Source of the DNA: an uncultured Alphaproteobacteria bacterium
Lineage (GTDB): Bacteria; Pseudomonadota; Alphaproteobacteria; Micropepsales; Micropepsaceae
Assembly (NCBI GenBank): GCA_963825895.1
Contig: CAWGUP010000002.1
Coordinates: forward strand, 532,564-564,563
Length of the DNA stretch: 32,000 bases
Direction of reading: 5' to 3'
Shown here: piece by piece, positions 5,903 through 16,463 of the stretch
Numbering within the stretch: position 1 is the stretch's first letter
How the letters are laid out: each line of letters starts with the position of its first letter
Made by a program: the position numbers and the translations under genes
The notes under the pieces: generated by a model
The model's input: the letters and a program-made list of their open reading frames with translations, nothing else
Told to the model about the DNA's origin: nothing
Database searches by the model: none

Positions 5903-7525
5903 TCAGACGTTTGCATCTATCCGTTCCAGCATGTGTTCTAACGTCCGCAATTCATCGGCTTCGCGCGCCGGCTTGTCCCAGCGCAACCGATTGATACGTG
6001 GGAACCGCATAGCAACGCCGGATTTGTGCCGCGTGGAACGCTGCAGGCCTTCAAAGGCGATTTCCATGACAAGGCCGAAATCGCGATCAGCCCGAACGGA
6101 ACGAACAGGCCCGAAGCGTTCCGTCGTGTTGTCGCGCACGAATTTGTCGAGTTGCTTGAGTTCATCGTCGGTAAAGCCGAAATAGGCTTTGCCCACCGGC
6201 GTCAACGCATACTTGCCGTCCTCATCTTCGCGCCAAACCCCGAACGTGTAGTCCGAATAAAAACTCGACCGCTTGCCGTGGCCGCGCTGGGCATACATCA
6301 GCACCGCGTCGATCAGGAACGGGTCGCGCTTCCATTTGAACCACGGCCCCTTGGGGCGCCCGGCTTCGTAGATAGAATCCCAGCGTTTCAGCATCACCCC
6401 CTCGGCGGATTGCGGGTCGCCGGCGGGCGGAGCAGCACGCAGCTGACGCAATTCGTCCCAGGTCCCGAACAGCAGCAACGGCGAAAGGTCGATACGGGAC
6501 GAGGCGGCCTTCTCGACAAACAATTCCAAACGCGCACGGCGCTGTTTGAATGGCAGATGGCGGATGTCCTTATCGCCATCGAGCAACAAATCATAGGCGC
6601 GGATGGCGGCGGGATATCGGGACATCAGCTTTGTATCCGCGGTCTTGCGATTGAGCCTTTGCTGCAAATCGCCGAACGGCGCGACCCTGCCCTTGCGCAT
6701 GACCAGGAGTTCCCCGTCGAGCACGCCCTCGAACGTCATCGCCTCCAAGATGTCTGGAAAAGAATGCGAAATGTCGTCGGCGGTGCGCGTGTAGAGACAA
6801 CGCTTGCCGCGCTCGTTCACGGCCTGCACCCGGATGCCATCCCATTTCCATTCAGCGGCGTAATCGGCGGGATCAAGCCGAACCAAATCGCTGTGCTCAT
6901 CGATGGCTTGTGCCAGCATGACCGGGCGGAACCGGCCCGGCGCATCGGGCGAGGGCCTTTCGCTGCGCTTTTCGAGCCACGCAAACAAATCTTCGTAAGG
7001 TGGCGACTGCGCGTGCCAGATTTCCTCCACTTGCGTTATGGGCACGCCGCCCATAGCGGCAGCGGCCTGTTTCGCCAGCCGAGCAGAAACGCCAACGCGC
7101 AAACCACCGGTGACAAGTTTCAAAAGCGCCCAACGTTCATTGGCATCGAGCGCATCAAGCCAGCCCTCCAAAAGCGCCTGGACCTGCGAACGCGATGCCG
7201 TGCGCAGTGCTTCGATTACCTCGGAGAATTCGGGTTTCCGATTGGCGCCGTGCTTCGCCGGCCAGATGAGCGCGACTGTTTCGGCAAGATCCCCGACATA
7301 GTCGTAAGAAAGGCGAAACAGTTGCGGATCATAGCGTGCTTCGACCGCCTTGCGGATGAACGCGGGCTTGGCCTGCGAAAACGACAGCGCGCCGGTCAGC
7401 GCAGCCAGCGCCCAGCCACGTTCGGGATCGGGTGCTTCGCGCAAATAATCGCGTATCAGGACCAGCTTGGCGTTGCGCGAGGGCGTAAACGAAAGTCGAT
7501 CCAGAAGATTTGCAAACGCGCGCAT
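5903..7525 (-). CDS. ATP-dependent DNA ligase of the ligase-associated DNA damage response type (usually annotated 'cisplatin damage response ATP-dependent DNA ligase')
   Basis: 540-aa ORF. Adenylation motif I is present with the catalytic lysine (AEWKWDGIRVQ). The OB-fold-like C-terminus, the length, and translational coupling to the beta-CASP exonuclease upstream are typical of this ligase family. Confidence 0.9.
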   Translation of the reverse strand: MRAFANLLDRLSFTPSRNAKLVLIRDYLREAPDPERGWALAALTGALSFSQAKPAFIRKAVEARYDPQLFRLSYDYVGDLAETVALIWPAKHGANRKPEFSEVIEALRTASRSQVQALLEGWLDALDANERWALLKLVTGGLRVGVSARLAKQAAAAMGGVPITQVEEIWHAQSPPYEDLFAWLEKRSERPSPDAPGRFRPVMLAQAIDEHSDLVRLDPADYAAEWKWDGIRVQAVNERGKRCLYTRTADDISHSFPDILEAMTFEGVLDGELLVMRKGRVAPFGDLQQRLNRKTADTKLMSRYPAAIRAYDLLLDGDKDIRHLPFKQRRARLELFVEKAASSRIDLSPLLLFGTWDELRQLRAAPPAGDPQSAEGVMLKRWDSIYEAGRPKGPWFKWKRDPFLIDAVLMYAQRGHGKRSSFYSDYTFGVWREDEDGKYALTPVGKAYFGFTDDELKQLDKFVRDNTTERFGPVRSVRADRDFGLVMEIAFEGLQRSTRHKSGVAMRFPRINRLRWDKPAREADELRTLEHMLERIDANV

Positions 7526-8535
7526 TAGGCTTCTTCTTCGTCATCATAGCCCACGAGCGAAAGGGCACGCGCGCCAACGCCTTCCAGCTCCGCCCAACGC
7601 AACAGGGCTTGCTCTTCGCCATGGGTGACCCAAAGCTCACAAGGCTGAAGTTGTTTCACCGTCATGGTGAGTTCGTCCCAATCGGCATGATCGGAAATAA
7701 CGAGCGGCAGTTCCACGCCGCGCTGGCGGGCACGCGCCCGCACGCTCATCCAGCCCGAGGCGAAGCCGGACAGCGGATCGGGAAAACGCCGCGCCCAGCG
7801 ATCTGCGATTGCAGACGGCGGCGCGATGATGATCGCGCCCTCGAAATCCTTTTTGCGTCCTGTCGTTGCGGGTGCAAGTGGGCCAAGCTCTATGCCGAAA
7901 GATTCATAGAGCGCGTTCAACCGCTGCATCGCACCATGCACATAGATGGTGCGGTCGTATCCGGCTTCGCGCAACAGACAGATGATGCGCTGGGCCTTGC
8001 CGAGCGCATAGGCGCCTACGAGATGGGCGCGTTGGGGAAACTGCGCCACCGATTTGAGCAGCTTGTGCATTTCGTCGTGGTCGTCGGGATGACGGAACAC
8101 GGGCAGGCCGAATGTCGCTTCCGACACGAATACATCGCAGGCAACAGGGACGAACGACGCGCAGGTGGGGTCGCGGCGACGCTTGTAATCGCCCGAGACG
8201 AGGATCCGGCAATCCTTCCAGTGCACAGCGGCTTGTGCTGATCCCAATATATGCCCCGCCGGGTGCAGCACGATCTCGACCCCGTTGTGCAGGGTAGGGG
8301 CGCCGTAGCTGGCAGCCTGGGTTTCGCCCGCAAAGCCCGTGCCATAACGCGCCTCCATGATGGCAAGAGTTTCGGCCGTCGCCAGCACCGCGCCATGGCC
8401 GGCGCGCGCGTGATCGGAATGGCCATGGGTGATGACGGCGCGCGCCACCGCCCGCACCGGGTCGATGTAGAAGTCTGCGGGCGGGCAATATAGTCCGGCC
8501 GGCGTTGGGCAGAGCAGCGTTTCAGGCTTTATCAT
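7525..8535 (-). CDS. Ligase-associated DNA damage response exonuclease (metallo-beta-lactamase / beta-CASP fold)
   Basis: The MBL motif ITHGHSDHARAGH (HxHxDH) is present. I placed the start at the internal ATG at 8535 (MIKPETLLCPTPAGLYCPPADFYIDP), which is the usual N-terminus of this family, rather than at the track start 8583. The stop TAA at 7525-7527 overlaps the ligase ATG at 7523-7525 (TAATG). Confidence 0.85.
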   Translation of the reverse strand: MIKPETLLCPTPAGLYCPPADFYIDPVRAVARAVITHGHSDHARAGHGAVLATAETLAIMEARYGTGFAGETQAASYGAPTLHNGVEIVLHPAGHILGSAQAAVHWKDCRILVSGDYKRRRDPTCASFVPVACDVFVSEATFGLPVFRHPDDHDEMHKLLKSVAQFPQRAHLVGAYALGKAQRIICLLREAGYDRTIYVHGAMQRLNALYESFGIELGPLAPATTGRKKDFEGAIIIAPPSAIADRWARRFPDPLSGFASGWMSVRARARQRGVELPLVISDHADWDELTMTVKQLQPCELWVTHGEEQALLRWAELEGVGARALSLVGYDDEEEA

Positions 8536-8642
8536 TTTGCCAATATGACCCTTGCCAGAACCTATCCCAAGACAAACGCCCAACGCGCTTGATCGCGGCG
8601 CGGAGCCGCTGCTTACATGGGCCGGGCGGATGGGACAGCTGG

Positions 8643-10508
8643 ATGCAACCGAGCGAAACGACCGAGAAGGAGGGGCCCCCCCGGCCCGCGCTGGTGCTGC
8701 GTTTTGGCATCAGCGGCCACCGCACACTGGGCGAGGAGGCGGGGCTGCGGGTGCACAAAGTGCTGACGGCACTGTTCACCGATGCACGTGACACGCTGGG
8801 GCACCTGCAATCGGGCCATCACCAGACCTTCTGCGGCAACGCTGCCGCCTTGCGGCTGATCTCGCCACTCGCCGAAGGCTCGGATCGACTTGCCGCGCAG
8901 GCAGCCCTCGATTGCGGTTTCGCGCTCGATTGCCCGCTTCCTTTCGCACGTGAACTCTACGAAGCCGATTTCAAGGCCGAGGCTTCGCGCAAGGCGTTCC
9001 ACCAATTGCTTGCCCGCGCGAAGAACGTATTCGAACTCGAGGAAACGCGCGGGGTCGACGACACCCGCGCCTACGAAGCCGTAGGTCTGATGACCTTACG
9101 CCAATGCGACATCCTGATCGCGGTTTGGAATGGGCTGCCCGCCGAAGGTCGCGGCGGCACCGCCGAGATCGTCTCGCACGCCATCGAGTCCAACATTCCG
9201 GTGATCTGGATCCATTCCGACAACAAGGACGCGCCGCCGAAATTGCTGCGTCCAGAGCCGCTTGGCTCGCGCGATCCATTGCAGATGCCGAGCGAAGAAC
9301 TGAGCGCTGAGGTGTTACGCGACTTGTTGTGCACGATGGTGTTGCCGCCGCATGATCCCAGCAAGCGAGTGCACAGGCCGCCCTCGAAGCGGTTGCGCGC
9401 CTATTGGGACGAGCGCCAGACCAAGTTCACTTTCTCCGTCTTCTATGCACTGTTGCAGATGATGCTGTTCGTGCGCTGGCCGCGCTTGGCTGATTTGCGC
9501 GTTCCAAACTATCTGGTGTCGGCCAACACACAATGGCGGACTTATTGGCAATTGCTGCCGCCGATTTCAGGCCCATCGCGCGAAAAGCTCGCCACTGTTT
9601 TGGAACCTGCCTTCGGTTGGGCCGATGGGCTGGCATCCTATTATGTGCGCGTTTATCGCAGCTCCTATGTGCTGAGTTTCGCGCTGGCGGCGGGCGCCGT
9701 ATTCGTGTCGCTGCTGGGTTTGTGGCACGGGGTGGCGCATAAGTGGTTGATAGTGATCGAATTGATCATGATGTGGAGCGTGGTCGTGATCGTATGGAAC
9801 GGCATGACGCGCAGTTGGCATGATCGCTGGATCGACTATCGCCATCTTGCCGAACTCCTGCGTCACATGCGGGTACTGACCTTGACCGGCTCGAGCACGT
9901 TCGAAATCCGCGATACGATACATAGCGAAGAAAGCAGTGGCGATTCGGGCGCGGCCTGGGTGAACTGGTATTATCGCGCCGTGGTGCGCGATATCGGCAT
10001 GGTGGGCGTGCGTGCCGACCCGGCCTATGCCGTCGCTGTGGCCCAACTCGTGCAGAAAACCGAATTGCGCGAACAGGTGCTTTATCATCGCGGCGTCGGC
10101 GAGGTTTCGCAGAAACTCGATCACAGGCTCGATAGGTGGGGCGTCATATTGTTCGGCCTGACTGCGGCTGTGTGCACCGTTTTCACTGGAGGCATATTTT
10201 TCCTCCACTGGAAATTCGAGAACTACGGAACGGCGGAAATCTTCTTTACCGCGCTCCTACCTGCCTTGGGGGCGGCGTTCTACGGCATCCGTGTGCAAGG
10301 TGAATTCGGGCGCATCGCCCAACGCGCAAGGCACATGGACGAACAGCTTTCGCAGGTTTCGGCAGCCCTGCGAAACGATCTGGCAAAGGGTGCGATGACG
10401 CTTTCGCGCGTGTCGTCGCTCACCGAAAGCGCGACCCACGCTATGGCGCTCGACGTCACCGACTGGCGTTTCGTATTCCGCGAAAAGCCACTTACATTGC
10501 CCACCTGA
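8643..10508 (+). CDS. SLOG-like (LOG/DprA-type Rossmannoid) nucleotide-sensor domain fused to two SLATT/DUF4231-like 2TM units; predicted membrane effector
   Basis: The start is set at the ATG at 8643 (MQPSETTEKEG...), clear of the divergent exonuclease gene. The N-terminal domain (about 8691-9215) has three matching elements:
- beta1 plus a Gly loop, LVLRFGISGHR;
- ISPLAEGSDRLAAQAAL, which resembles the DprA/SLOG pattern G.A.G.D..A...AL;
- DILIAVWNGLPAEGRGGTAEIVSHAIESNIPVIWI, which resembles the LOG pattern PGGxGTxEE.
TM pair 1 (about 9660-9803) is followed by WHDRWIDYRHLAELLRH. TM pair 2 (about 10137-10292) is followed by a long helix, GEFGRIAQRARHMDEQLSQV. A 2TM unit followed by a helix is the SLATT pattern. 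The domain call rests on motif recall, not on an HMM search. Confidence 0.65.
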   Translation: MQPSETTEKEGPPRPALVLRFGISGHRTLGEEAGLRVHKVLTALFTDARDTLGHLQSGHHQTFCGNAAALRLISPLAEGSDRLAAQAALDCGFALDCPLPFARELYEADFKAEASRKAFHQLLARAKNVFELEETRGVDDTRAYEAVGLMTLRQCDILIAVWNGLPAEGRGGTAEIVSHAIESNIPVIWIHSDNKDAPPKLLRPEPLGSRDPLQMPSEELSAEVLRDLLCTMVLPPHDPSKRVHRPPSKRLRAYWDERQTKFTFSVFYALLQMMLFVRWPRLADLRVPNYLVSANTQWRTYWQLLPPISGPSREKLATVLEPAFGWADGLASYYVRVYRSSYVLSFALAAGAVFVSLLGLWHGVAHKWLIVIELIMMWSVVVIVWNGMTRSWHDRWIDYRHLAELLRHMRVLTLTGSSTFEIRDTIHSEESSGDSGAAWVNWYYRAVVRDIGMVGVRADPAYAVAVAQLVQKTELREQVLYHRGVGEVSQKLDHRLDRWGVILFGLTAAVCTVFTGGIFFLHWKFENYGTAEIFFTALLPALGAAFYGIRVQGEFGRIAQRARHMDEQLSQVSAALRNDLAKGAMTLSRVSSLTESATHAMALDVTDWRFVFREKPLTLPT

Positions 10509-10510
10509 CC

Positions 10511-12508
10511 ATGCCGATCACGCTTTTCCGCTCCCGGGACTGGTTCGTCATCGCGCCGCTGGCGCTGGCCGGGCTGGTGCTCGGCTTCTGGGGCTTTGAG
10601 ATCTGTGCCGGGCGATGCCTTGTCACCTCGCCGCTGGGCGCCTTCGTCAAAACTGTCGGGCTCATCAAAGCCACAGGCAATTTCACGCTCGGCAAGGACC
10701 CGTGGCAGCTCGTCATCGCGCAATTTCTGTTGCCGCTGTCGGCGCTGGCCGGCGGCATTAAGCTGGTGCTGCAGAATCTACGCCGCGACATGCGCGTGGC
10801 CTTGGCGCGCAGTGCGCGCGGGCATGTGATCGTCTGCGGTCTGGGCGACACCGGTCGGCAGGTCGTCGAAAGCCTGCGCAACGAAGGCGAGCACGCCGTG
10901 GCCATCACGCTCGACAATGACAGCCCGAACGCTCTTGCCTGCGAAGCGCGCGGTGTGGCGATTCTCAAAGGCGATGCCGTACAGCCCAACATGCTGAAAC
11001 TCGCAGGCCTTGCCCACGCCAAAGCGCTGGTGCTCGCCTGCGGCTCGGACGGCACCAACATCGAGATCGGCCTGCGCGCGCGCGAATTCCTCGACAAGCT
11101 GCCAAAGCGCCGCGATCCACTCACGATCCTGCCTGAACTGCGCAACGAATGGCTCTACGACGAAGTGCTCACCCACCGCGCCGCAGCGCTGGGATCGCGC
11201 GTCGCAGAATTCCGCCTGTTCAATCTCAACGCCAACGCCGCGCGGCTACTGCTGCGCGCGCCAGCCTTCCGCGCACGCAGTGCGCCGGCCGATCGGCCGC
11301 ATCTTGCCATTGCCGGATTCGGACAAATGGCGTCCGAGCTTCTGTTGCAGGCCGCGCGCGACAATTTTGCGCTGCCCGGACAGCGGCTTTCGGTGTCGGC
11401 GCTGGACCAGCGCGGCGAGGAAAGCCTTGTCGCGTTCAAAACGCGGTTTCCCGAAATCGCCTCGATGATCGATATTTCCTGTGATGCCTGTTCTTTCGTC
11501 GCAGGAGACGCGAGCGCGTCAGCCGCGGTGGAAAAGTTTCTGGATAACGCCGATCTGCGCGCGGCCATCGTCACTCTGAAAGACGATGATGCGGCACTGC
11601 ACACCGCCATCGCGATGCGAAAGAGCCTGGACCGTAGCGCGCGCTACCGCGTGCCTGTGTTCGTACGGCTGCGCCAGCAACAGAAGCTGGGCGCCTTCAT
11701 GTCGCACATTGAGGGCGATTTGCTTCTGCCTGACCGGTTCTCGCCCTTTGGCAGTCTCGCCGAACTTACCCATCCCGACCGCTTGCTGGGGCAATCGCTT
11801 GATATCCTGGCGCGTGCCGCTCACGACAATTACTTAAAGGACGCACAACCGGGCCAGGCGTCCTCGGTGCCGTGGGAATTGTTGCCGGAGCGGTTCAAGC
11901 AATCCAATCGCGCCTTCACCGATCACATCCAAACCAAGCTCAATGCGCTCGGAATGCGGTTGATCGCGCTGCGCGGCCAACGCATCGCGTTCAGCGATTG
12001 GGAAATCGAAATGTTGGCGCAAATGGAACATTACCGCTGGTGCGTGGCGCAGCGTTCGGCGGGCTGGCGCTATGGGACAGTGCGCAACGACTATTTAAGA
12101 CAGCACCCGCTGCTGGTGGACTGGGCGGCTCTGCCGCAATCGGTCTGCCAGGCCAATCGCGAGATGGTGCGCGGCATTCCGGCCATCGTAGAAATGGCGG
12201 GCCAATCCATCCGCCGCGACCAAGTGTTGGTGGCGAACCCCGATACGCTGGCTGCCCTGGACGCGCTTTTGCCCAGCGAACATGCCGTCATCTTGGTGGA
12301 TGAGACGGATGCCGCCTCATGGGAGATCGCGCGCCAGGCCCATGAACGCTACGGCGCCACTATCCGCCTCGTCTGGCAGGAAGGCCGCCCGCCTCCCGCG
12401 ATCCCCGCCGGAGGCGCCAACATGGCGGGCGCAGTGGAAGGTTGGATCGACGCTGCGGAGCTGGCGTGTCACGAAAGCTCGCTTGCTCAAAGCAGCCGCC
12501 ACTTTTAA
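10511..12508 (+). CDS. Membrane protein: N-terminal 2TM module, TrkA_N/RCK-type NAD-binding Rossmann domain(s), and a RyR (ryanodine receptor repeat) domain
   Basis: 665-aa ORF. Its ATG lies 2 nt after the stop of the preceding gene.
- TM1 spans aa 11-33 and TM2 spans aa 66-88.
- The Rossmann motif GHVIVCGLGDTGRQVVESL ... VAILKGDA ... AKALVLAC matches TrkA_N.
- A second Rossmann-like start, HLAIAGFGQMASELL, follows.
- The RyR signature lies at about 11798-12205: LARAAHDNYLK...WELLPERFKQSNRAFTDHIQTKL and EIEMLAQMEHYRWCVAQRSAGWRYGTVRNDYLRQHPLLVDWAALPQSVCQANREMVRGIP. The family pattern is E.lA...H..W......GW.yG..rd...k.hP.lv.w..Lp...k..dr..v..ip. Confidence 0.8.
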   Translation: MPITLFRSRDWFVIAPLALAGLVLGFWGFEICAGRCLVTSPLGAFVKTVGLIKATGNFTLGKDPWQLVIAQFLLPLSALAGGIKLVLQNLRRDMRVALARSARGHVIVCGLGDTGRQVVESLRNEGEHAVAITLDNDSPNALACEARGVAILKGDAVQPNMLKLAGLAHAKALVLACGSDGTNIEIGLRAREFLDKLPKRRDPLTILPELRNEWLYDEVLTHRAAALGSRVAEFRLFNLNANAARLLLRAPAFRARSAPADRPHLAIAGFGQMASELLLQAARDNFALPGQRLSVSALDQRGEESLVAFKTRFPEIASMIDISCDACSFVAGDASASAAVEKFLDNADLRAAIVTLKDDDAALHTAIAMRKSLDRSARYRVPVFVRLRQQQKLGAFMSHIEGDLLLPDRFSPFGSLAELTHPDRLLGQSLDILARAAHDNYLKDAQPGQASSVPWELLPERFKQSNRAFTDHIQTKLNALGMRLIALRGQRIAFSDWEIEMLAQMEHYRWCVAQRSAGWRYGTVRNDYLRQHPLLVDWAALPQSVCQANREMVRGIPAIVEMAGQSIRRDQVLVANPDTLAALDALLPSEHAVILVDETDAASWEIARQAHERYGATIRLVWQEGRPPPAIPAGGANMAGAVEGWIDAAELACHESSLAQSSRHF

Positions 12509-12533: not shown

Positions 12534-13745
12534 ATGGCGCACGACGTCTTTATTTCCTATTCGTCGAAAGACAAACCGGCGGCGGACGCGACCTGCGCTG
12601 TGCTGGAATCCAAGGGTATACGCTGCTGGATGGCGCCGCGCGACATCACGCCAGGCGCGGACTGGGGTGAATCCATCGTCGAAGCGATCCACGCATCGCG
12701 GGCGATGGTGCTGGTGTTTTCGTCAAACGCCAATCTCTCGCCGCAGATCAAGCGCGAGGTCGAACGCTCGGTCAACAAGGGTATCCCCGTCATTCCACTG
12801 CGCATCGAAAACGTGATGCCGGCAAAGTCACTGGAATACTTTCTCTCAACGCCGCATTGGCTCGATGCCTTTACCCCACCGCTCGAACATCATTTGAATT
12901 ATCTGGCCGACGTCATCCGCCACATCCTAGATGGCCAGCCCCCGCCCCCTCCACCGGTTCCGGTGCTTTCACCACTCCACGGCATCGACCGACGCGTGCT
13001 GATCGGCGGCGGCGTTGGCGGGCTCGTGGTGGTAGGCGTTCTGGGTTGGCTGCTGTTGGGACCGTCGACACCGCCCAGCTTCGTTGGCAAATGGACTGCG
13101 GAAAAAGTGGATGTCAACGCCGATACACCAAGCCCGTTCGGCATGTTCTCGATCAGTACCTTTTTCCGGGCCGCAGTGCAGGGGCAAAAACTCACCGGCA
13201 GTTTCGAAGTCGGCGATCTGGGTCAATATAAATATGTCGGGGCCGGAGACGATACCGGGACCGTGAAGGCGGATGGGCAGAATCGCATCATCATGACCTC
13301 CGACCTCACCCATGAAGCGACTGTTTTTACCTACATCGCGAGCAGTGCGGCGTCGTTTGGCGCCTATGCCGGCTCCCTGGGCGGCAAACCAACCGATGGA
13401 GCCATCGCGCTCAGTTCGTCTGGCGGCGCCCAATCCATGCTGGTCGGCACATCGACGGGCAACCCGGGCGAGGCGATCGGGCCCCTGGTCGGTCACTGGT
13501 ACACGAACACCCCGGCCAATCCTGCCATCGGCGCAGTGAAGACCTCGCTCGATATTGGCCATGATGGACGCTACCACTATCATTTCGAAATTGCCGAAAA
13601 CGGCATGTGGCAGGCCGCCGATGGAAAATGGACGCGCACGCCCCAAGGTGGCATCCCGACCTCGGGAACTTACAAATTTGACGGACGTGACAGTGTTACT
13701 TCCGCCGCCGCAAACGGCGTCACCGTGTGGAAACGCATCGATTAA
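12534..13745 (+). CDS. TIR-domain protein: cytoplasmic N-terminal TIR, Pro-rich linker, single TM helix, extracytoplasmic C-terminal domain of unknown fold
   Basis: The start is set at the ATG at 12534, 25 nt after the previous stop. The track ORF start at 12282 overlaps the upstream gene.
- TIR_2-type motifs are present: MAHDVFISYSSKDKPAADA..., CWMAPRDITPGADWGESIVEAI..SRAMVLVFSSNANLSPQIKREVERSV.KGIPVIPLR.
- The candidate catalytic Glu lies in IKREVE (codon 12756-12758).
- A PPPPPPPVP linker follows.
- The TM helix is VLIGGGVGGLVVVGVLGWLLLG (about 12996-13059).
- The C-terminal domain is about 225 aa and Gly/Thr/Ser-rich, with GKWT...GTYKF strings. Confidence 0.85.
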   Translation: MAHDVFISYSSKDKPAADATCAVLESKGIRCWMAPRDITPGADWGESIVEAIHASRAMVLVFSSNANLSPQIKREVERSVNKGIPVIPLRIENVMPAKSLEYFLSTPHWLDAFTPPLEHHLNYLADVIRHILDGQPPPPPPVPVLSPLHGIDRRVLIGGGVGGLVVVGVLGWLLLGPSTPPSFVGKWTAEKVDVNADTPSPFGMFSISTFFRAAVQGQKLTGSFEVGDLGQYKYVGAGDDTGTVKADGQNRIIMTSDLTHEATVFTYIASSAASFGAYAGSLGGKPTDGAIALSSSGGAQSMLVGTSTGNPGEAIGPLVGHWYTNTPANPAIGAVKTSLDIGHDGRYHYHFEIAENGMWQAADGKWTRTPQGGIPTSGTYKFDGRDSVTSAAANGVTVWKRID

Positions 13746-13837: not shown

Positions 13838-14881
13838 ATGTCCGTTCGCCCCCGGTTGCTTGCGCTTGAAACTGCTGTTCCGCCTTATGTACTGCACCAA
13901 AAAGACGTCGCCGTCCGTGCTGCCAATCTGTTCCGCGGCCACAAGGACATCGACCGGCTGCTACCCGTATTCGAAAACACCGGAATCGAGAAGCGTTATT
14001 CCTGTGTGCCCATCGACTGGTATGTCGAGCCCCATGGTTGGAAAGATCGTACCCAGCTTTACCTCGAACATGCGCTCGCGCTGTTCGAGAAGATCACCAA
14101 CGACTGTCTGAAAGTAGCCTGCCTCCAGCGCGAAGACATCGGCGCGATCGTCGTGGTGTCCTCCACCGGCATTGCCACGCCGAGTCTCGATGCGTTGCTC
14201 ATGGAACGGATGCAGTTGCGGCGCGATATCGTGCGGCTGCCGATCTTTGGGCTTGGCTGTGCAGGCAGCGTGCTTGGGCTCGCGCGCGCATCAGCGCTTG
14301 CCCGCGCGATGCCGGGCACCAATGTTCTTTTCCTCGTGGTAGAGCTCTGCGCGCTCACTTTCCGCAAGGACGACGTCAGCAAGAGTAACATCGTGGCAAC
14401 CGCCCTGTTCGGCGACGGCGCGGCAGGCGCGATTCTTTCGACCGAGGGCAAAGGGGTGCAAATCGGCGCAACCGGTGAATACACGTGGCCCAATTCGCTC
14501 GACATTATGGGCTGGGAAATCGAGGAGGACGGATTGAAGGCGCGCTTCGCCACCTCCATTCCTTCGCTCGTCGCCAAAGATTTCCGCAGAATCGCCACCA
14601 GCTTTGCGCGCAAGAACGACATCGATCTGACAGACATCGACGCGTTTGCCTGCCATCCCGGCGGCGCGAAGGTGCTCGACGCGTTGGAAGATGCGCTGAC
14701 GCTTGCGCGCGGCGCGCTCGAAGACAGTCGTGCGGTGCTGCGCGACTATGGCAACATGTCGGCGGTAACCGCGATGTTCGTGCTGAAGCGTATCAACGAA
14801 CGCGAGCAGGCCGAGCGTTGCATGATGACAGCGTTGGGACCGGGTTTTTCTTGCGGCTTCGTGATGCTGGAGAGGCGATGA
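13838..14881 (+). CDS. Type III polyketide synthase (chalcone/stilbene synthase superfamily)
   Basis: 347-aa ORF. The active-site Cys context FGLGCAGSVLGL is present. His is present in FACHPGGAKVLDA. The C-terminal GPGFSCGF motif is also present. Length and N-terminus (LLALETAVPPYVLHQKDV) fit bacterial type III PKS. Confidence 0.9.
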   Translation: MSVRPRLLALETAVPPYVLHQKDVAVRAANLFRGHKDIDRLLPVFENTGIEKRYSCVPIDWYVEPHGWKDRTQLYLEHALALFEKITNDCLKVACLQREDIGAIVVVSSTGIATPSLDALLMERMQLRRDIVRLPIFGLGCAGSVLGLARASALARAMPGTNVLFLVVELCALTFRKDDVSKSNIVATALFGDGAAGAILSTEGKGVQIGATGEYTWPNSLDIMGWEIEEDGLKARFATSIPSLVAKDFRRIATSFARKNDIDLTDIDAFACHPGGAKVLDALEDALTLARGALEDSRAVLRDYGNMSAVTAMFVLKRINEREQAERCMMTALGPGFSCGFVMLERR

Positions 14882-15411
14882 GCGCAGCCTACGTTATCAT
14901 TGCGCTTGTCGCGCTTCAGCGACTGGCTGAATTGCCTTATGCCGCGCGCAACACCAAACGCCTACTTGCAAGTGGCGGCATCGAGGCAGGACGCGGCCAC
15001 TACCCGCTCTTCATCGTGTTGCACGCGGGCTGGCTCATCGCCATTATACTGGCGCTGCCGCCTGATCCACCAATCCGTTGGGCCATGCTTGGCGCCTATG
15101 TACTGCTCGAAATCCTGCGGGCCTGGGTTCTTGTGACGTTGGGACCCTATTGGACCACGCGCATCATCACGCTGCCCAATGCCGCGCTGGTCCAAACCGG
15201 ACCCTATCGCTATGTCCGCCACCCGAATTACTGGATCGTGGTTTTTGAGATCGCATTGCTACCGCTGGTGTTCGGCGAGATCGCTGTTGCAGTGGTCTTC
15301 AGCGTTCTGAACGCCGTACTTTTGTTTTGGCGCATTAGGATCGAGAACGCGGCGCTCGCGAACCGGCGGGCCCATCATGCATCGCCGGGCACACTTGTGA
15401 GATCAAGATGA
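14878..15411 (+). CDS. Isoprenylcysteine carboxyl methyltransferase (ICMT)-family membrane methyltransferase
   Basis: The ATG at 14878 overlaps the PKS stop (ATGA). The 177-aa polytopic protein is MSAAYVIIALVALQRLAELPYAARN... and carries the TGPYRYVRHPNYW motif (RHPxY) typical of ICMT/PEMT-type methyltransferases. The track ORF start at 14485 is an out-of-context extension. Confidence 0.85.
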   Translation: MSAAYVIIALVALQRLAELPYAARNTKRLLASGGIEAGRGHYPLFIVLHAGWLIAIILALPPDPPIRWAMLGAYVLLEILRAWVLVTLGPYWTTRIITLPNAALVQTGPYRYVRHPNYWIVVFEIALLPLVFGEIAVAVVFSVLNAVLLFWRIRIENAALANRRAHHASPGTLVRSR

Positions 15412-16463
15412 GCGATCGGAAGAAGGTCATGGCAGCGTTGCGCTATTCAGGACCGCTCCTGTTTCTTGGGTCGATTCCGATCCTGCACGCATGGGCGCCG
15501 GCAGCCCCCTTTGCGACGGTGATTTTGATATTGTCGGCGCTTGTGCTGGCGGAGCGTTTCTCCAAATCGCCCACCAACATGACACCGCAGGTCTCAACCG
15601 GGCATTTGCTTCCCGTTCTCTACATTCCTGCGCAACTGACGGTGACGCTTTGGGCCGCTCATCAGGTGACCGCGCCCGGCACAACGGCGTGGGAAATCGT
15701 AGCTCTTACGATTTCGGTGGGCGCTACGACTGGCATATTCGGCGTGCTGGCAGCCCACGAAATGGTGCACAATCCGTCCCGCACGAAACGTGCGCTGGGC
15801 AGGATCATGCTGAGCGCTATGACTTATCGGCATTTCGCCATTGCTCATGTTTACGGCCATCACCGCTGGGCCGGAACCGATCGCGATGCTTCCACCGCGC
15901 GGCGTGGCGAGAACTTCTATGCATTCTTCCTGCGCACGCTGGTGCAACAGGTCGCGATGGCCTTCGCGTTCGAAAGGCGCCGTTGCGCAAACAAATCCTT
16001 TCCTGTGCTGCGCAACCGCGTTTTGCACGATGGCGTCATCATGGTGGTAATCTATGGGGCGCTCTATGCCTTTTGGGGACCGATGGCTGCGATCTTCCTG
16101 GCACTGGAAAGCTTCGTCGGCATCTTCGTTCTGGAGGTCTTCAACTATGTTGCCCATTACGGGCTGATGCGCCAGCGCGCGCCTGACGGCACACTCGAAC
16201 CGATGACGCATCGCCACGCTTGGAACTCCAGCGCGCCTGCGGCAAATCTCCTGATTTTCAACATGGGCCGCCATAGCGATCACCACGCTCGTGCGGGTGC
16301 GATCTACGAAACGCTCAGATCGCTGGAGGGAGCGCCGGAGCTTCCCGGGAGTTATGCCGGAAGTATCCTAATGGCACTGGTCCCTCCACTGTGGCGCAAG
16401 GTGATGGATGGCGAACTCTCGCGCCTACAAGCACGGCCGCCGCAAATCGCCTATCCTGCTTGA
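15408..16463 (+). CDS. AlkB-like integral-membrane di-iron hydroxylase (alkane 1-monooxygenase / fatty-acid desaturase superfamily)
   Basis: The ATG at 15408 overlaps the preceding stop (ATGA). The His boxes HEMVHN, AHVYGHHRW, NYVAHYGL and GRHSDHHA match the AlkB pattern (HELxH, EHxxGHH, NYxEHYGL, HSDHH). At 351 aa it is somewhat shorter than classical AlkB. Confidence 0.85.
   Translation: MSDRKKVMAALRYSGPLLFLGSIPILHAWAPAAPFATVILILSALVLAERFSKSPTNMTPQVSTGHLLPVLYIPAQLTVTLWAAHQVTAPGTTAWEIVALTISVGATTGIFGVLAAHEMVHNPSRTKRALGRIMLSAMTYRHFAIAHVYGHHRWAGTDRDASTARRGENFYAFFLRTLVQQVAMAFAFERRRCANKSFPVLRNRVLHDGVIMVVIYGALYAFWGPMAAIFLALESFVGIFVLEVFNYVAHYGLMRQRAPDGTLEPMTHRHAWNSSAPAANLLIFNMGRHSDHHARAGAIYETLRSLEGAPELPGSYAGSILMALVPPLWRKVMDGELSRLQARPPQIAYPA

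Follow-up and report, generated by a model that had tools for sequence, protein, structure and literature searches.

The window, a stretch of 32,000 nucleotides (nt) from contig CAWGUP010000002.1 of an uncultured Alphaproteobacteria bacterium, carries an operon of three genes on the same (+) strand, and the first of these genes is the main subject of this report. It encodes a predicted membrane protein of 621 amino acids (aa) in which an N-terminal SLOG domain is followed, in a single polypeptide, by two SLATT-type modules, each containing a hairpin of two transmembrane (TM) helices. The second gene begins after a gap of 2 nt and encodes a channel-type protein with tandem RCK lobes and a RyR domain (the RCK-RyR protein), and a further 25 nt separate it from the third gene, which encodes a TIR-domain protein. 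The features of the locus are listed in Table 1.

Table 1. Features of the focal gene, its operon partners and the flanking genes, by position in the window.
Feature	Position (nt)	Strand	Basis
Gene for SLOG + DUF4231-type SLATT + SLATT_1-type SLATT membrane protein	8643..10508	+	ORF and translation, identical database protein, 136 homologues, AlphaFold2 pLDDT 93
Cytoplasmic YpsA-clade SLOG (Rossmannoid) domain, aa 16-202	8688..9248	+	DSSP beta/alpha pattern, hhalign to viral YpsA-like ORFs, Foldseek
Loop after strand 1, G-I-S-G-H-R (family consensus GxTGHR)	8706..8723	+	G22 85/86, G25 85/86, H26 76/86, R27 85/86
L-A-E-G-S-D motif, YpsA/DprA-type 'GxD' loop	8868..8885	+	A77, G79 and D81 each 86/86
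D156, W-N/D-G turn and G-R-G-G-T loop	9108..9161	+	D156 86/86, W162 85/86, G171 and G172 86/86, T173 85/86; E175 variable
GRGGTAE, aa 169-175	9147..9167	+	Translation
Structured connector from SLOG to the first SLATT helix, aa 203-309	9249..9569	+	Block pLDDT 87-97, short strands and four helices
SLATT module 1 (DUF4231 type), aa 310-415: stalk helix, TM1 (9660-9716), TM2 (9738-9803), amphipathic WHxRWIDYRxLAExLR helix	9570..9887	+	Pfam, NCBIfam, hydropathy, DSSP
Glu373, membrane-embedded acidic residue in TM2	9759..9761	+	E in 83/86 family members
Charged peptide WHDRWIDYRHLAELLRH after hairpin 1, aa 392-408	9816..9866	+	Translation
SLATT module 2 (SLATT_1 type), aa 460-613: stalk helix with QxxYH, TM3 (10137-10202), TM4 (10233-10295), two C-terminal helices	10020..10481	+	SLATT_1 in aligned homologues
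Charged peptide GEFGRIAQRARHMDEQLSQVSAAL after hairpin 2, aa 553-576	10299..10370	+	Translation
GsuK/MthK-like RCK-RyR protein, 665 aa: two TM helices, pore-helix-like segment, tandem RCK (TrkA_N) lobes, RyR Repeat12-type domain (~11798-12196), C-terminal alpha/beta domain	10511..12508	+	Pfam, AlphaFold2, Foldseek, PDB sequence search
TIR partner: TIR_2 domain (~12534-12938), Pro-rich segment, one TM helix (~12996-13064), ~220-aa extracytoplasmic domain	12534..13745	+	Pfam, hydropathy peak, start codon confirmed
ATP-dependent DNA ligase (540 aa) and MBL/RMMBL-fold nuclease (352 aa)	5903..8583	-	
Type III polyketide synthase (chalcone-synthase-like), small membrane protein, fatty-acid desaturase-like gene	13838..16463	+	

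The open reading frame (ORF) of the focal gene runs from an ATG at 8643 to a stop codon at 10506-10508, and its start codon is sound because a public protein (P0001) is identical over all 621 aa and many public homologues of 619-621 aa have the same N-terminus. AlphaFold2, given 86 homologues as input, produced a model with a predicted local distance difference test score (pLDDT) of 93.2 and a predicted template modelling score of 0.92. According to DSSP this model has an alternating beta/alpha domain (aa 16-191, pLDDT >90), a first hairpin of long helices at aa 310-358 and 366-390 with a further helix at aa 392-415, and a second hairpin of helices at aa 460-520 and 525-553 with further helices at aa 555-582 and 587-613. 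In both hairpins the long stalk helix runs on into the membrane, the outer loop is short and amphipathic helices follow. Kyte-Doolittle hydropathy picks out four hydrophobic segments, at aa ~340-362 and 366-387 (nt 9660-9803) and at aa ~499-521 and 531-551 (nt 10137-10295). An earlier annotation made from the letters and ORFs of this DNA (the sequence-only reading) had described a 621-aa product with an N-terminal Rossmannoid domain and two TM hairpins, and in this it agrees with the ORF, the hydropathy profile and the model; the motif GRGGTAE and the charged peptides that it had quoted are also present where it placed them. Clusters of Arg and Lys on the N-terminal, inter-hairpin and C-terminal sides, as read from the sequence, fit an in-out-in-out-in topology in which both ends of each hairpin would lie in the cytoplasm. 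That this architecture is not a product of chance follows from the alignment of the 86 homologues, which at 25-69% identity keep 11 invariant and 33 nearly invariant columns. A search of PDB sequences with the whole focal protein gave no match.

The N-terminal domain is most similar to SLOG domains of the YpsA clade. Compared by hhalign, the profile of the family N-domain aligns with phage YpsA-type SLOG ORFs over 141 columns at 99.8% probability (E 4.9e-28), and the phage ORFs so aligned match Pfam YpsA (PF06908) above threshold at 1e-14 to 1e-15. Foldseek gives the focal model a probability of 1.00 to DprA (3uqz and 4ljk), the Moco-carrier protein MCP (2iz5), the LOG-like protein TM1055 (1rcu) and ShosA (8zva), and in a viral library it finds YspA/cpYpsA-SLOG, DUF2493 and DprA-like proteins and, separately, SLATT-named proteins. 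Two of 78 family members also have a Pfam match to YAcAr. The SLOG-like identity that had been proposed for this domain is thus upheld by profile and fold alike. The set of nucleotide loops, comprising GxTGHR, LAEGxD, D156, WDG and GGT, is almost invariant across the 86 homologues, and in the profile alignments the GxTGHR loop of the family falls on TGHRP of the phage YpsA proteins and the LAEGSD motif of the focal protein on their SGMAxGxDQ.

The loop GRGGTAE had been equated with the nucleotide-binding loop PGGxGTxxE of the LOG family. The Gly-Gly-Thr part of that comparison holds, as G171, G172 and T173 are kept, but the catalytic Glu does not, with position 175 being Glu in 30, Gln in 27 and Asp in 12 of the 86 homologues and position 176 being Ile or Val. 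Because the Glu that completes PGGxGTxxE is not conserved, the N-domain is, as judged from motifs and profiles, a YpsA/DprA-type SLOG domain and not a LOG enzyme. This bears on an alternative in which the SLOG domain would be an enzyme rather than a sensor, that is, an N-glycosidase of nucleotides or a signal-processing enzyme, anchored in the membrane, that produces or breaks down a nucleotide signal, with the SLATT hairpins serving mainly as an anchor or exporter. Such a role would be in keeping with the N-glycosidase activity of LOG-clade SLOG domains, with the proposal that viral YpsA-like SLOG domains degrade signals of the cyclic ADP-ribose type (cADPr; PMC9503650) and with the conservation in the family of the acidic and basic residues D81, D156, R27 and H26. 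It is nevertheless improbable in our judgment, given the variable residue at the LOG catalytic position, the fact that the nearest relatives are YpsA/DprA-type binders and not LOG enzymes, and the strongly conserved Glu within the membrane together with the stalk helices, which argue for a functional membrane part and no mere anchor.

Proteins of 145-190 aa that consist of a stand-alone YpsA-like SLOG domain with the motifs TGHRP, SGMAxGxDQ and DNCDLLxAVWDG..GGT are encoded on phage contigs (L094-L113). They are close in profile to the focal N-domain and could be candidate binders or degraders of the signal that counter systems of this kind. In the viral contigs searched we found the stand-alone SLOG domain only and never the full-length focal protein.

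The sequence-only reading had given the protein a linker of about 140 aa, running from the N-terminal domain to the TM hairpins. While there is such a stretch, it is modelled as ordered (pLDDT 87-97) and is no flexible tether; the connector proper, aa 203-309, shows low sequence conservation.

The first SLATT module is recognized directly in the focal protein, where Pfam DUF4231 (PF14015) matches aa 325-423 with 28.3 bits against a gathering cutoff of 24.7, and DUF4231 is a family that we take to be a member of the SLATT clan in Pfam. The NCBIfam model SLATT_1 matches aa 324-419 (E 7.4e-8), which is below NCBI's cutoff, and across 78 family members Pfam finds DUF4231 in 62. In addition to the acidic residue within TM2 (Table 1), Arg339 at the foot of TM1 is conserved in 86/86 homologues. 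The second module is recognized through its relatives, as the corresponding region of aligned homologues scores 27-36 bits with Pfam SLATT_1, whose cutoff is 26.3 (P0043 at aa 465-586 with 33.7 bits, P0107, P0113 and P0119), and the first hairpin matches DUF4231; SLATT_1 is found in 8/78 family members. Foldseek also aligns the model with viral SLATT proteins such as M4QZF4 (TM-score 0.58, root-mean-square deviation 3.2), a result in which the matched half of the model is not specified. The claim that the hairpins are SLATT-like therefore stands for module 1 on a score above the gathering cutoff and is probable for module 2 from its aligned homologues, with no direct Pfam match to module 2 in the focal protein itself.

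The two units had also been called duplicated. There are indeed two SLATT-type units, but a profile-profile comparison of one with the other (hhalign, 83 sequences) gave a probability of 0.2% over only 10 aligned columns. Because the modules show no detectable profile similarity, they are best regarded as an old heterologous pair of differing SLATT types and not as a recent duplication. The contrary view, that one SLATT unit was recently duplicated in tandem within the protein, would explain why both follow the same plan, in which a stalk helix leads into a TM helix and, past a short loop on the outer side, a second TM helix comes back through the membrane to an amphipathic helix, and why SLATT-family models recognize both. 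We hold it to be very improbable, since in addition to the negative comparison the modules match differing families, DUF4231 for the first and SLATT_1 for the second, and the pair is kept across thousands of clusters, so that any duplication or fusion of SLATT genes must be ancient.

The tandem arrangement of two SLATT modules is the rule for a very large and mostly soil-borne family and is not rare, because a profile search of the full library returned thousands of cluster representatives (15,790 at E<=1e-3 and 5,423 at E<=1e-30) and the best 150 matches are all full-length, at 547-816 aa. The sequence-only reading had taken a single SLATT unit to be usual. A scan of metagenomes confirmed at least 531 family loci, and in source records the family carries no label other than 'DUF4231 domain-containing protein' or 'hypothetical protein'. 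At one locus (L005 6220-9800) a TIR-DUF4189 gene comes after two paralogues of the focal family in tandem, which encode 590 aa and 599 aa. Elsewhere (L062 4207-4785, minus strand) there is a stand-alone 193-aa copy of the family N-domain (E 2e-43), which adjoins two RyR-containing genes and a gene for a 794-aa TIR protein and amounts to a 'split' version of the system.

The RCK-RyR protein encoded next to the focal gene matches Pfam TrkA_N (5.5e-19) and RyR (9.1e-11), and a search of PDB sequences aligns it with RyR Repeat12 at E 1e-12 to 3e-14. Its AlphaFold2 model (pLDDT 90.9) leads from TM1 through a short pore-helix-like helix and TM2 into two RCK lobes, a RyR-type domain and an alpha/beta domain, and Foldseek ranks the full-length GsuK channel first among its matches, with TrkA rings, MthK and human RyR3 Repeat12 next. 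The TVGYG selectivity filter is absent from the RCK-RyR protein, and the family (n = 59) has (T/S)xGL(I/V)(R/K)GxG(N/S)(Y/F). Phage RyR-domain proteins termed RyDEP bind or cleave 2'/3'cADPR by means of H75, W78, H100 and D117 (2026 preprint, PMC13232231). Mapped by the numbering of that preprint and an alignment of the RyR1 chimera without indels, these residues correspond to H507, W510, H532 and N549 of the window protein. Among its homologues H507 and W510 are kept in 59/59 and H532 in 40/59, and the Asp position is Asn in 43/59 and Asp in 10/59. Since the ligand residues are kept and the catalytic Asp of RyDEP is Asn549 in the window protein, which consequently lacks a His/Asp catalytic dyad of the RyDEP type, the residue pattern suggests that the RyR domain is a binder rather than a glycosidase. 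Our search of the literature on RyR domains combined with RCK found nothing relevant, and a host-encoded, RyR-domain channel-type partner in a TIR operon is a more novel part of this locus than the focal gene itself.

The TIR partner matches Pfam TIR_2 at 6.3e-22 and ThsB_TIR weakly. It holds the S-x5-E motif SPQIKRE, which fits the pattern SxWCxxE, and from general knowledge of TIR NADases we take the Glu of this motif to be at the catalytic position. The C-terminal domain of ~220 aa has no Pfam match in the window protein, and a relative at L005 carries DUF4189 in its place. The presumed outward orientation of this domain is unusual among Thoeris-like TIR proteins.

The association of the family with TIR genes was assessed by scanning 90 family loci with local profile hidden Markov models, from which a dereplicated set of 32 loci was drawn (90% identity, >=3 kb on each side). 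In 38/90 loci, and in 19/32 of the dereplicated, well-flanked ones, the family gene has a TIR gene within 3 kb, and 22/32 of the latter set have either a TIR or a RCK/RyR gene. Of the 38 nearby TIR genes, 33 run in the same direction as the family gene. Pfam confirms TIR_2 in partners of the TIR-TPR, SIR2-TIR and TIR-DUF4062 types. In the RefSeq annotation of a Caballeronia plasmid the gene order is DUF4231 protein, TIR protein and WD40 protein, and the same three gene types occur in another order at a locus of 29% identity (L008). Some distant members of the family are found near caspase, trypsin, AAA, WD40 or TIR genes. At several family loci the next gene downstream is an RCK-RyR gene, and where RCK-RyR homologues were sampled regardless of context (L114, L115 and L116) a family gene is adjacent in 3/3, with the two genes divergent or convergent and with no TIR gene within 7 kb. 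In TIR-TPR operons (L072 6474-7525, L083 6894-7966 and L063 7486-7947) the TIR gene is separated from the focal-family gene by one small ORF or by two (of ~155 and ~185 aa). Both such ORFs of L072 and of L083 have DPDIxNGGKG as their last residues, the second also carrying a C-terminal TM helix, and the two from L072 have no Pfam match.

The surroundings of the window operon are of a different character. The neighbours in the window and in its syntenic relative are the housekeeping genes for DNA ligase, an MBL-fold nuclease, a type III polyketide synthase, a desaturase and an MFS transporter, and no defense-gene surroundings were found at either; the locus is syntenic in relatives at 66-67% identity. 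The ligase and nuclease form a ligase-associated repair pair that is divergent from the focal operon, and the polyketide synthase group lies directly downstream of the TIR gene, with the synthase and the desaturase-like gene also kept in the syntenic relative L001. PADLOC (2023) has no model that matches the focal protein or its RCK-RyR neighbor. A scan for promoters and terminators gave counts near the shuffle expectation and was uninformative.

Several of these observations would also suit a physiological rather than an immune function. The SLOG-SLATT protein could regulate the RCK-RyR channel-type protein as its partner, or belong to it as an auxiliary subunit, in an ion-signaling module that responds to NAD+-derived metabolites and serves ion or envelope-stress homeostasis, with the TIR protein as an optional envelope sensor. 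The adjacency of RCK-RyR and family genes at all three sampled loci in the absence of a nearby TIR gene, the housekeeping synteny of the window, the TM helix and outward-facing domain of the TIR partner and the negative PADLOC result are all consistent with such a module. Most family loci, however, have no RCK-RyR gene and yet have TIR partners of a conflict type (TIR-TPR, SIR2-TIR, or TIR beside WD40, caspase or AAA genes), and SLATT domains are known elsewhere only as effectors of conflict systems. Hence we consider a purely homeostatic function rather unlikely, though it is the alternative to which we give the most weight.

We propose instead that the focal protein is probably an inner-membrane receptor-effector for an NAD+-derived nucleotide made by the TIR protein, that it would act by altering the permeability of the membrane, and that it would do so as part of a three-gene operon with the TIR and RCK-RyR proteins. 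We place the probability of this reading at roughly 0.6. The partner TIR protein, which keeps its catalytic-Glu motif and is predicted to be membrane-anchored with an outward-facing domain, would upon triggering turn NAD+ into an ADP-ribose-derived nucleotide, such as a cADPR isomer or a relative of it. The pocket of the SLOG domain would bind this nucleotide, as the SLOG domain of ThsA does 3'cADPR, and the rigid connector and stalk helices would relay the change caused by binding to the four TM helices. These helices may then open or oligomerize and cause a membrane leak, as has been proposed for the SLATT effectors of CBASS and type VII Thoeris, with depolarization and growth arrest, or else an ion-flux signal, as the outcome. 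The RCK-RyR protein would probably bind the same signal through its RyR domain and could provide a second gated conductance or buffer the signal.

A sensor-effector function of this kind fits the strong linkage of the family to TIR genes, and its elements have precedents. In type I Thoeris a SLOG domain senses 3'cADPR, and in type VII Thoeris a SLATT effector is paired with a cADPR signal (bioRxiv 10.64898/2025.12.03.692087). The Aravind group has already described TIR-SLATT neighborhoods and the sensing of cADPr by YpsA-clade SLOG domains (PMC9503650; PMC7159879), and our search for literature linking DUF4231 with TIR found no paper.

Other findings weigh against the proposal. We know of no ligand, toxicity or defense phenotype reported for any member of the family, and another candidate effector with SLOG and four TM helices, which belongs to a different family, gave no defense in E. 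coli when tested by others. The isolated N-domain of the focal protein has no direct Pfam match, so that the SLOG assignment rests on family profiles and fold, and the second SLATT module likewise lacks a direct match. The extracytoplasmic domain sets the TIR partner apart from the cytosolic ThsB proteins. In terms of gene context, a TIR gene is missing from the 3 kb around the family gene at about 40% of the well-flanked loci, none was seen within 7 kb at the three sampled RCK-RyR loci, the window and its syntenic relative are set among housekeeping genes, and PADLOC recognizes neither the focal protein nor its RCK-RyR neighbor.

A more far-reaching possibility is that the operon embodies a bacterial version of the logic by which, in eukaryotes, an NAD+-derived messenger controls cation channels. 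The cADPR-type nucleotide made by the membrane TIR protein would in that case directly gate both a GsuK-like channel, through its RyR Repeat12-type domain, and a double-SLATT pore, through its SLOG domain. We offer this only tentatively, as a doubtful extension of the proposal. SLOG is the fold that binds ADP-ribose in TRPM2, and the link between cADPR and RyR in animals is disputed. Were this logic to apply, a prokaryotic TIR module would be the ancestor of, or a parallel to, the RyR-domain and SLOG nucleotide sensors found in animal Ca2+ channels, and the disputed cADPR-RyR link would gain a simple and testable bacterial model.

Nucleotides made by TIR domains are an immune language common to bacteria, plants and animals, and the list of their receptors and effectors is still growing. 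Two parts validated individually, one in Thoeris type I and the other in type VII, are joined in one chain in the focal family, and the focal protein would offer a one-protein system in which to study how a nucleotide pocket is coupled to SLATT helices. The recurrent pairing with the RCK-RyR protein comes to light only months after phage RyR domains proved able to bind and cleave cADPR isomers; it points to a host-side use of RyR domains and to an accessible model for how nucleotides may gate domains of the RyR type. Cultured carriers of the family include Caballeronia sp. SBC2, on plasmid pSBC2-4, and Methylobacterium haplocladii.

Comparison with known systems places each part of the operon. 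The SLATT families, SLATT_1 to SLATT_5 and DUF4231, were reportedly defined by Burroughs et al. in 2015 and are said to share a two-TM hairpin with flanking helices and an association with SLOG domains and nucleotide-generating enzymes. The focal hairpins have the same hairpin and flanking-helix plan and the same association with SLOG and a nucleotide enzyme, but the focal polypeptide joins two differing family types in tandem, an arrangement that may have been depicted in the 2015 work already. With the YpsA/YspA/DprA clade the focal N-domain has in common the fold and the motifs TGHR, GxD, WDG and GGT; the proteins of that clade, of which one regulates cell division, one processes DNA and others come from phages, are soluble, whereas the focal domain is fused to membrane modules. 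The RCK-RyR neighbor has two TM helices, a pore-helix-like segment and a tandem RCK fold in the same order as the GsuK channel, from which it differs in lacking the TVGYG filter. It keeps the ligand residues His, Trp and His of RyDEP and RyR Repeat12, but whereas RyDEP is a soluble phage evasion protein with a catalytic Asp, the RCK-RyR gene is host-encoded, its product is membrane-bound, and it stands beside TIR and SLOG-SLATT genes.

A putative Thoeris effector named '4TM SLOG' has also been described as a TIR-adjacent candidate, two systems of which were negative in E. coli (bioRxiv 10.64898/2025.12.03.692087, Tables S1 and S2). It resembles the focal protein in combining SLOG and four TM helices beside a TIR gene. 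We reject the identity of the two, as a 373-aa relative of the candidate (L011 3892-5013), recovered beside a relative of its TIR protein, has no tblastn match to the focal protein and reaches only 0.2% by hhalign. This locus of the published type (L011 3892-6969) consists of the 373-aa SLOG+4TM gene followed by a gene for a 462-aa protein with a C-terminal TIR domain, and a 179-aa ORF downstream in L011 matches the N-domain of the focal family (hhalign 94.6%, E 7e-8).

The closest parallels are found in Thoeris. In ThsA of type I Thoeris (SIR2-SLOG), which is likewise encoded beside a TIR gene, a SLOG receptor for the 3'cADPR made by TIR controls a fused effector, but the output of ThsA is a soluble SIR2 NADase and that of the focal protein would be the paired SLATT hairpins in the membrane; PADLOC gives the focal protein no match to its ThsA-type models. 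ThsH of type VII Thoeris is a TIR-adjacent SLATT membrane protein that is thought to oligomerize into a membrane-breaching assembly when it binds its ligand. According to its description ThsH has no SLOG domain and its pockets are predicted to lie between SLATT protomers, whereas the focal chain carries a SLOG sensor and two differing SLATT units. The focal protein thus appears to resemble a merger of the sensor of ThsA with the effector of ThsH, and the focal gene follows the known Thoeris-like logic of SLOG and SLATT in what may be a new combination.

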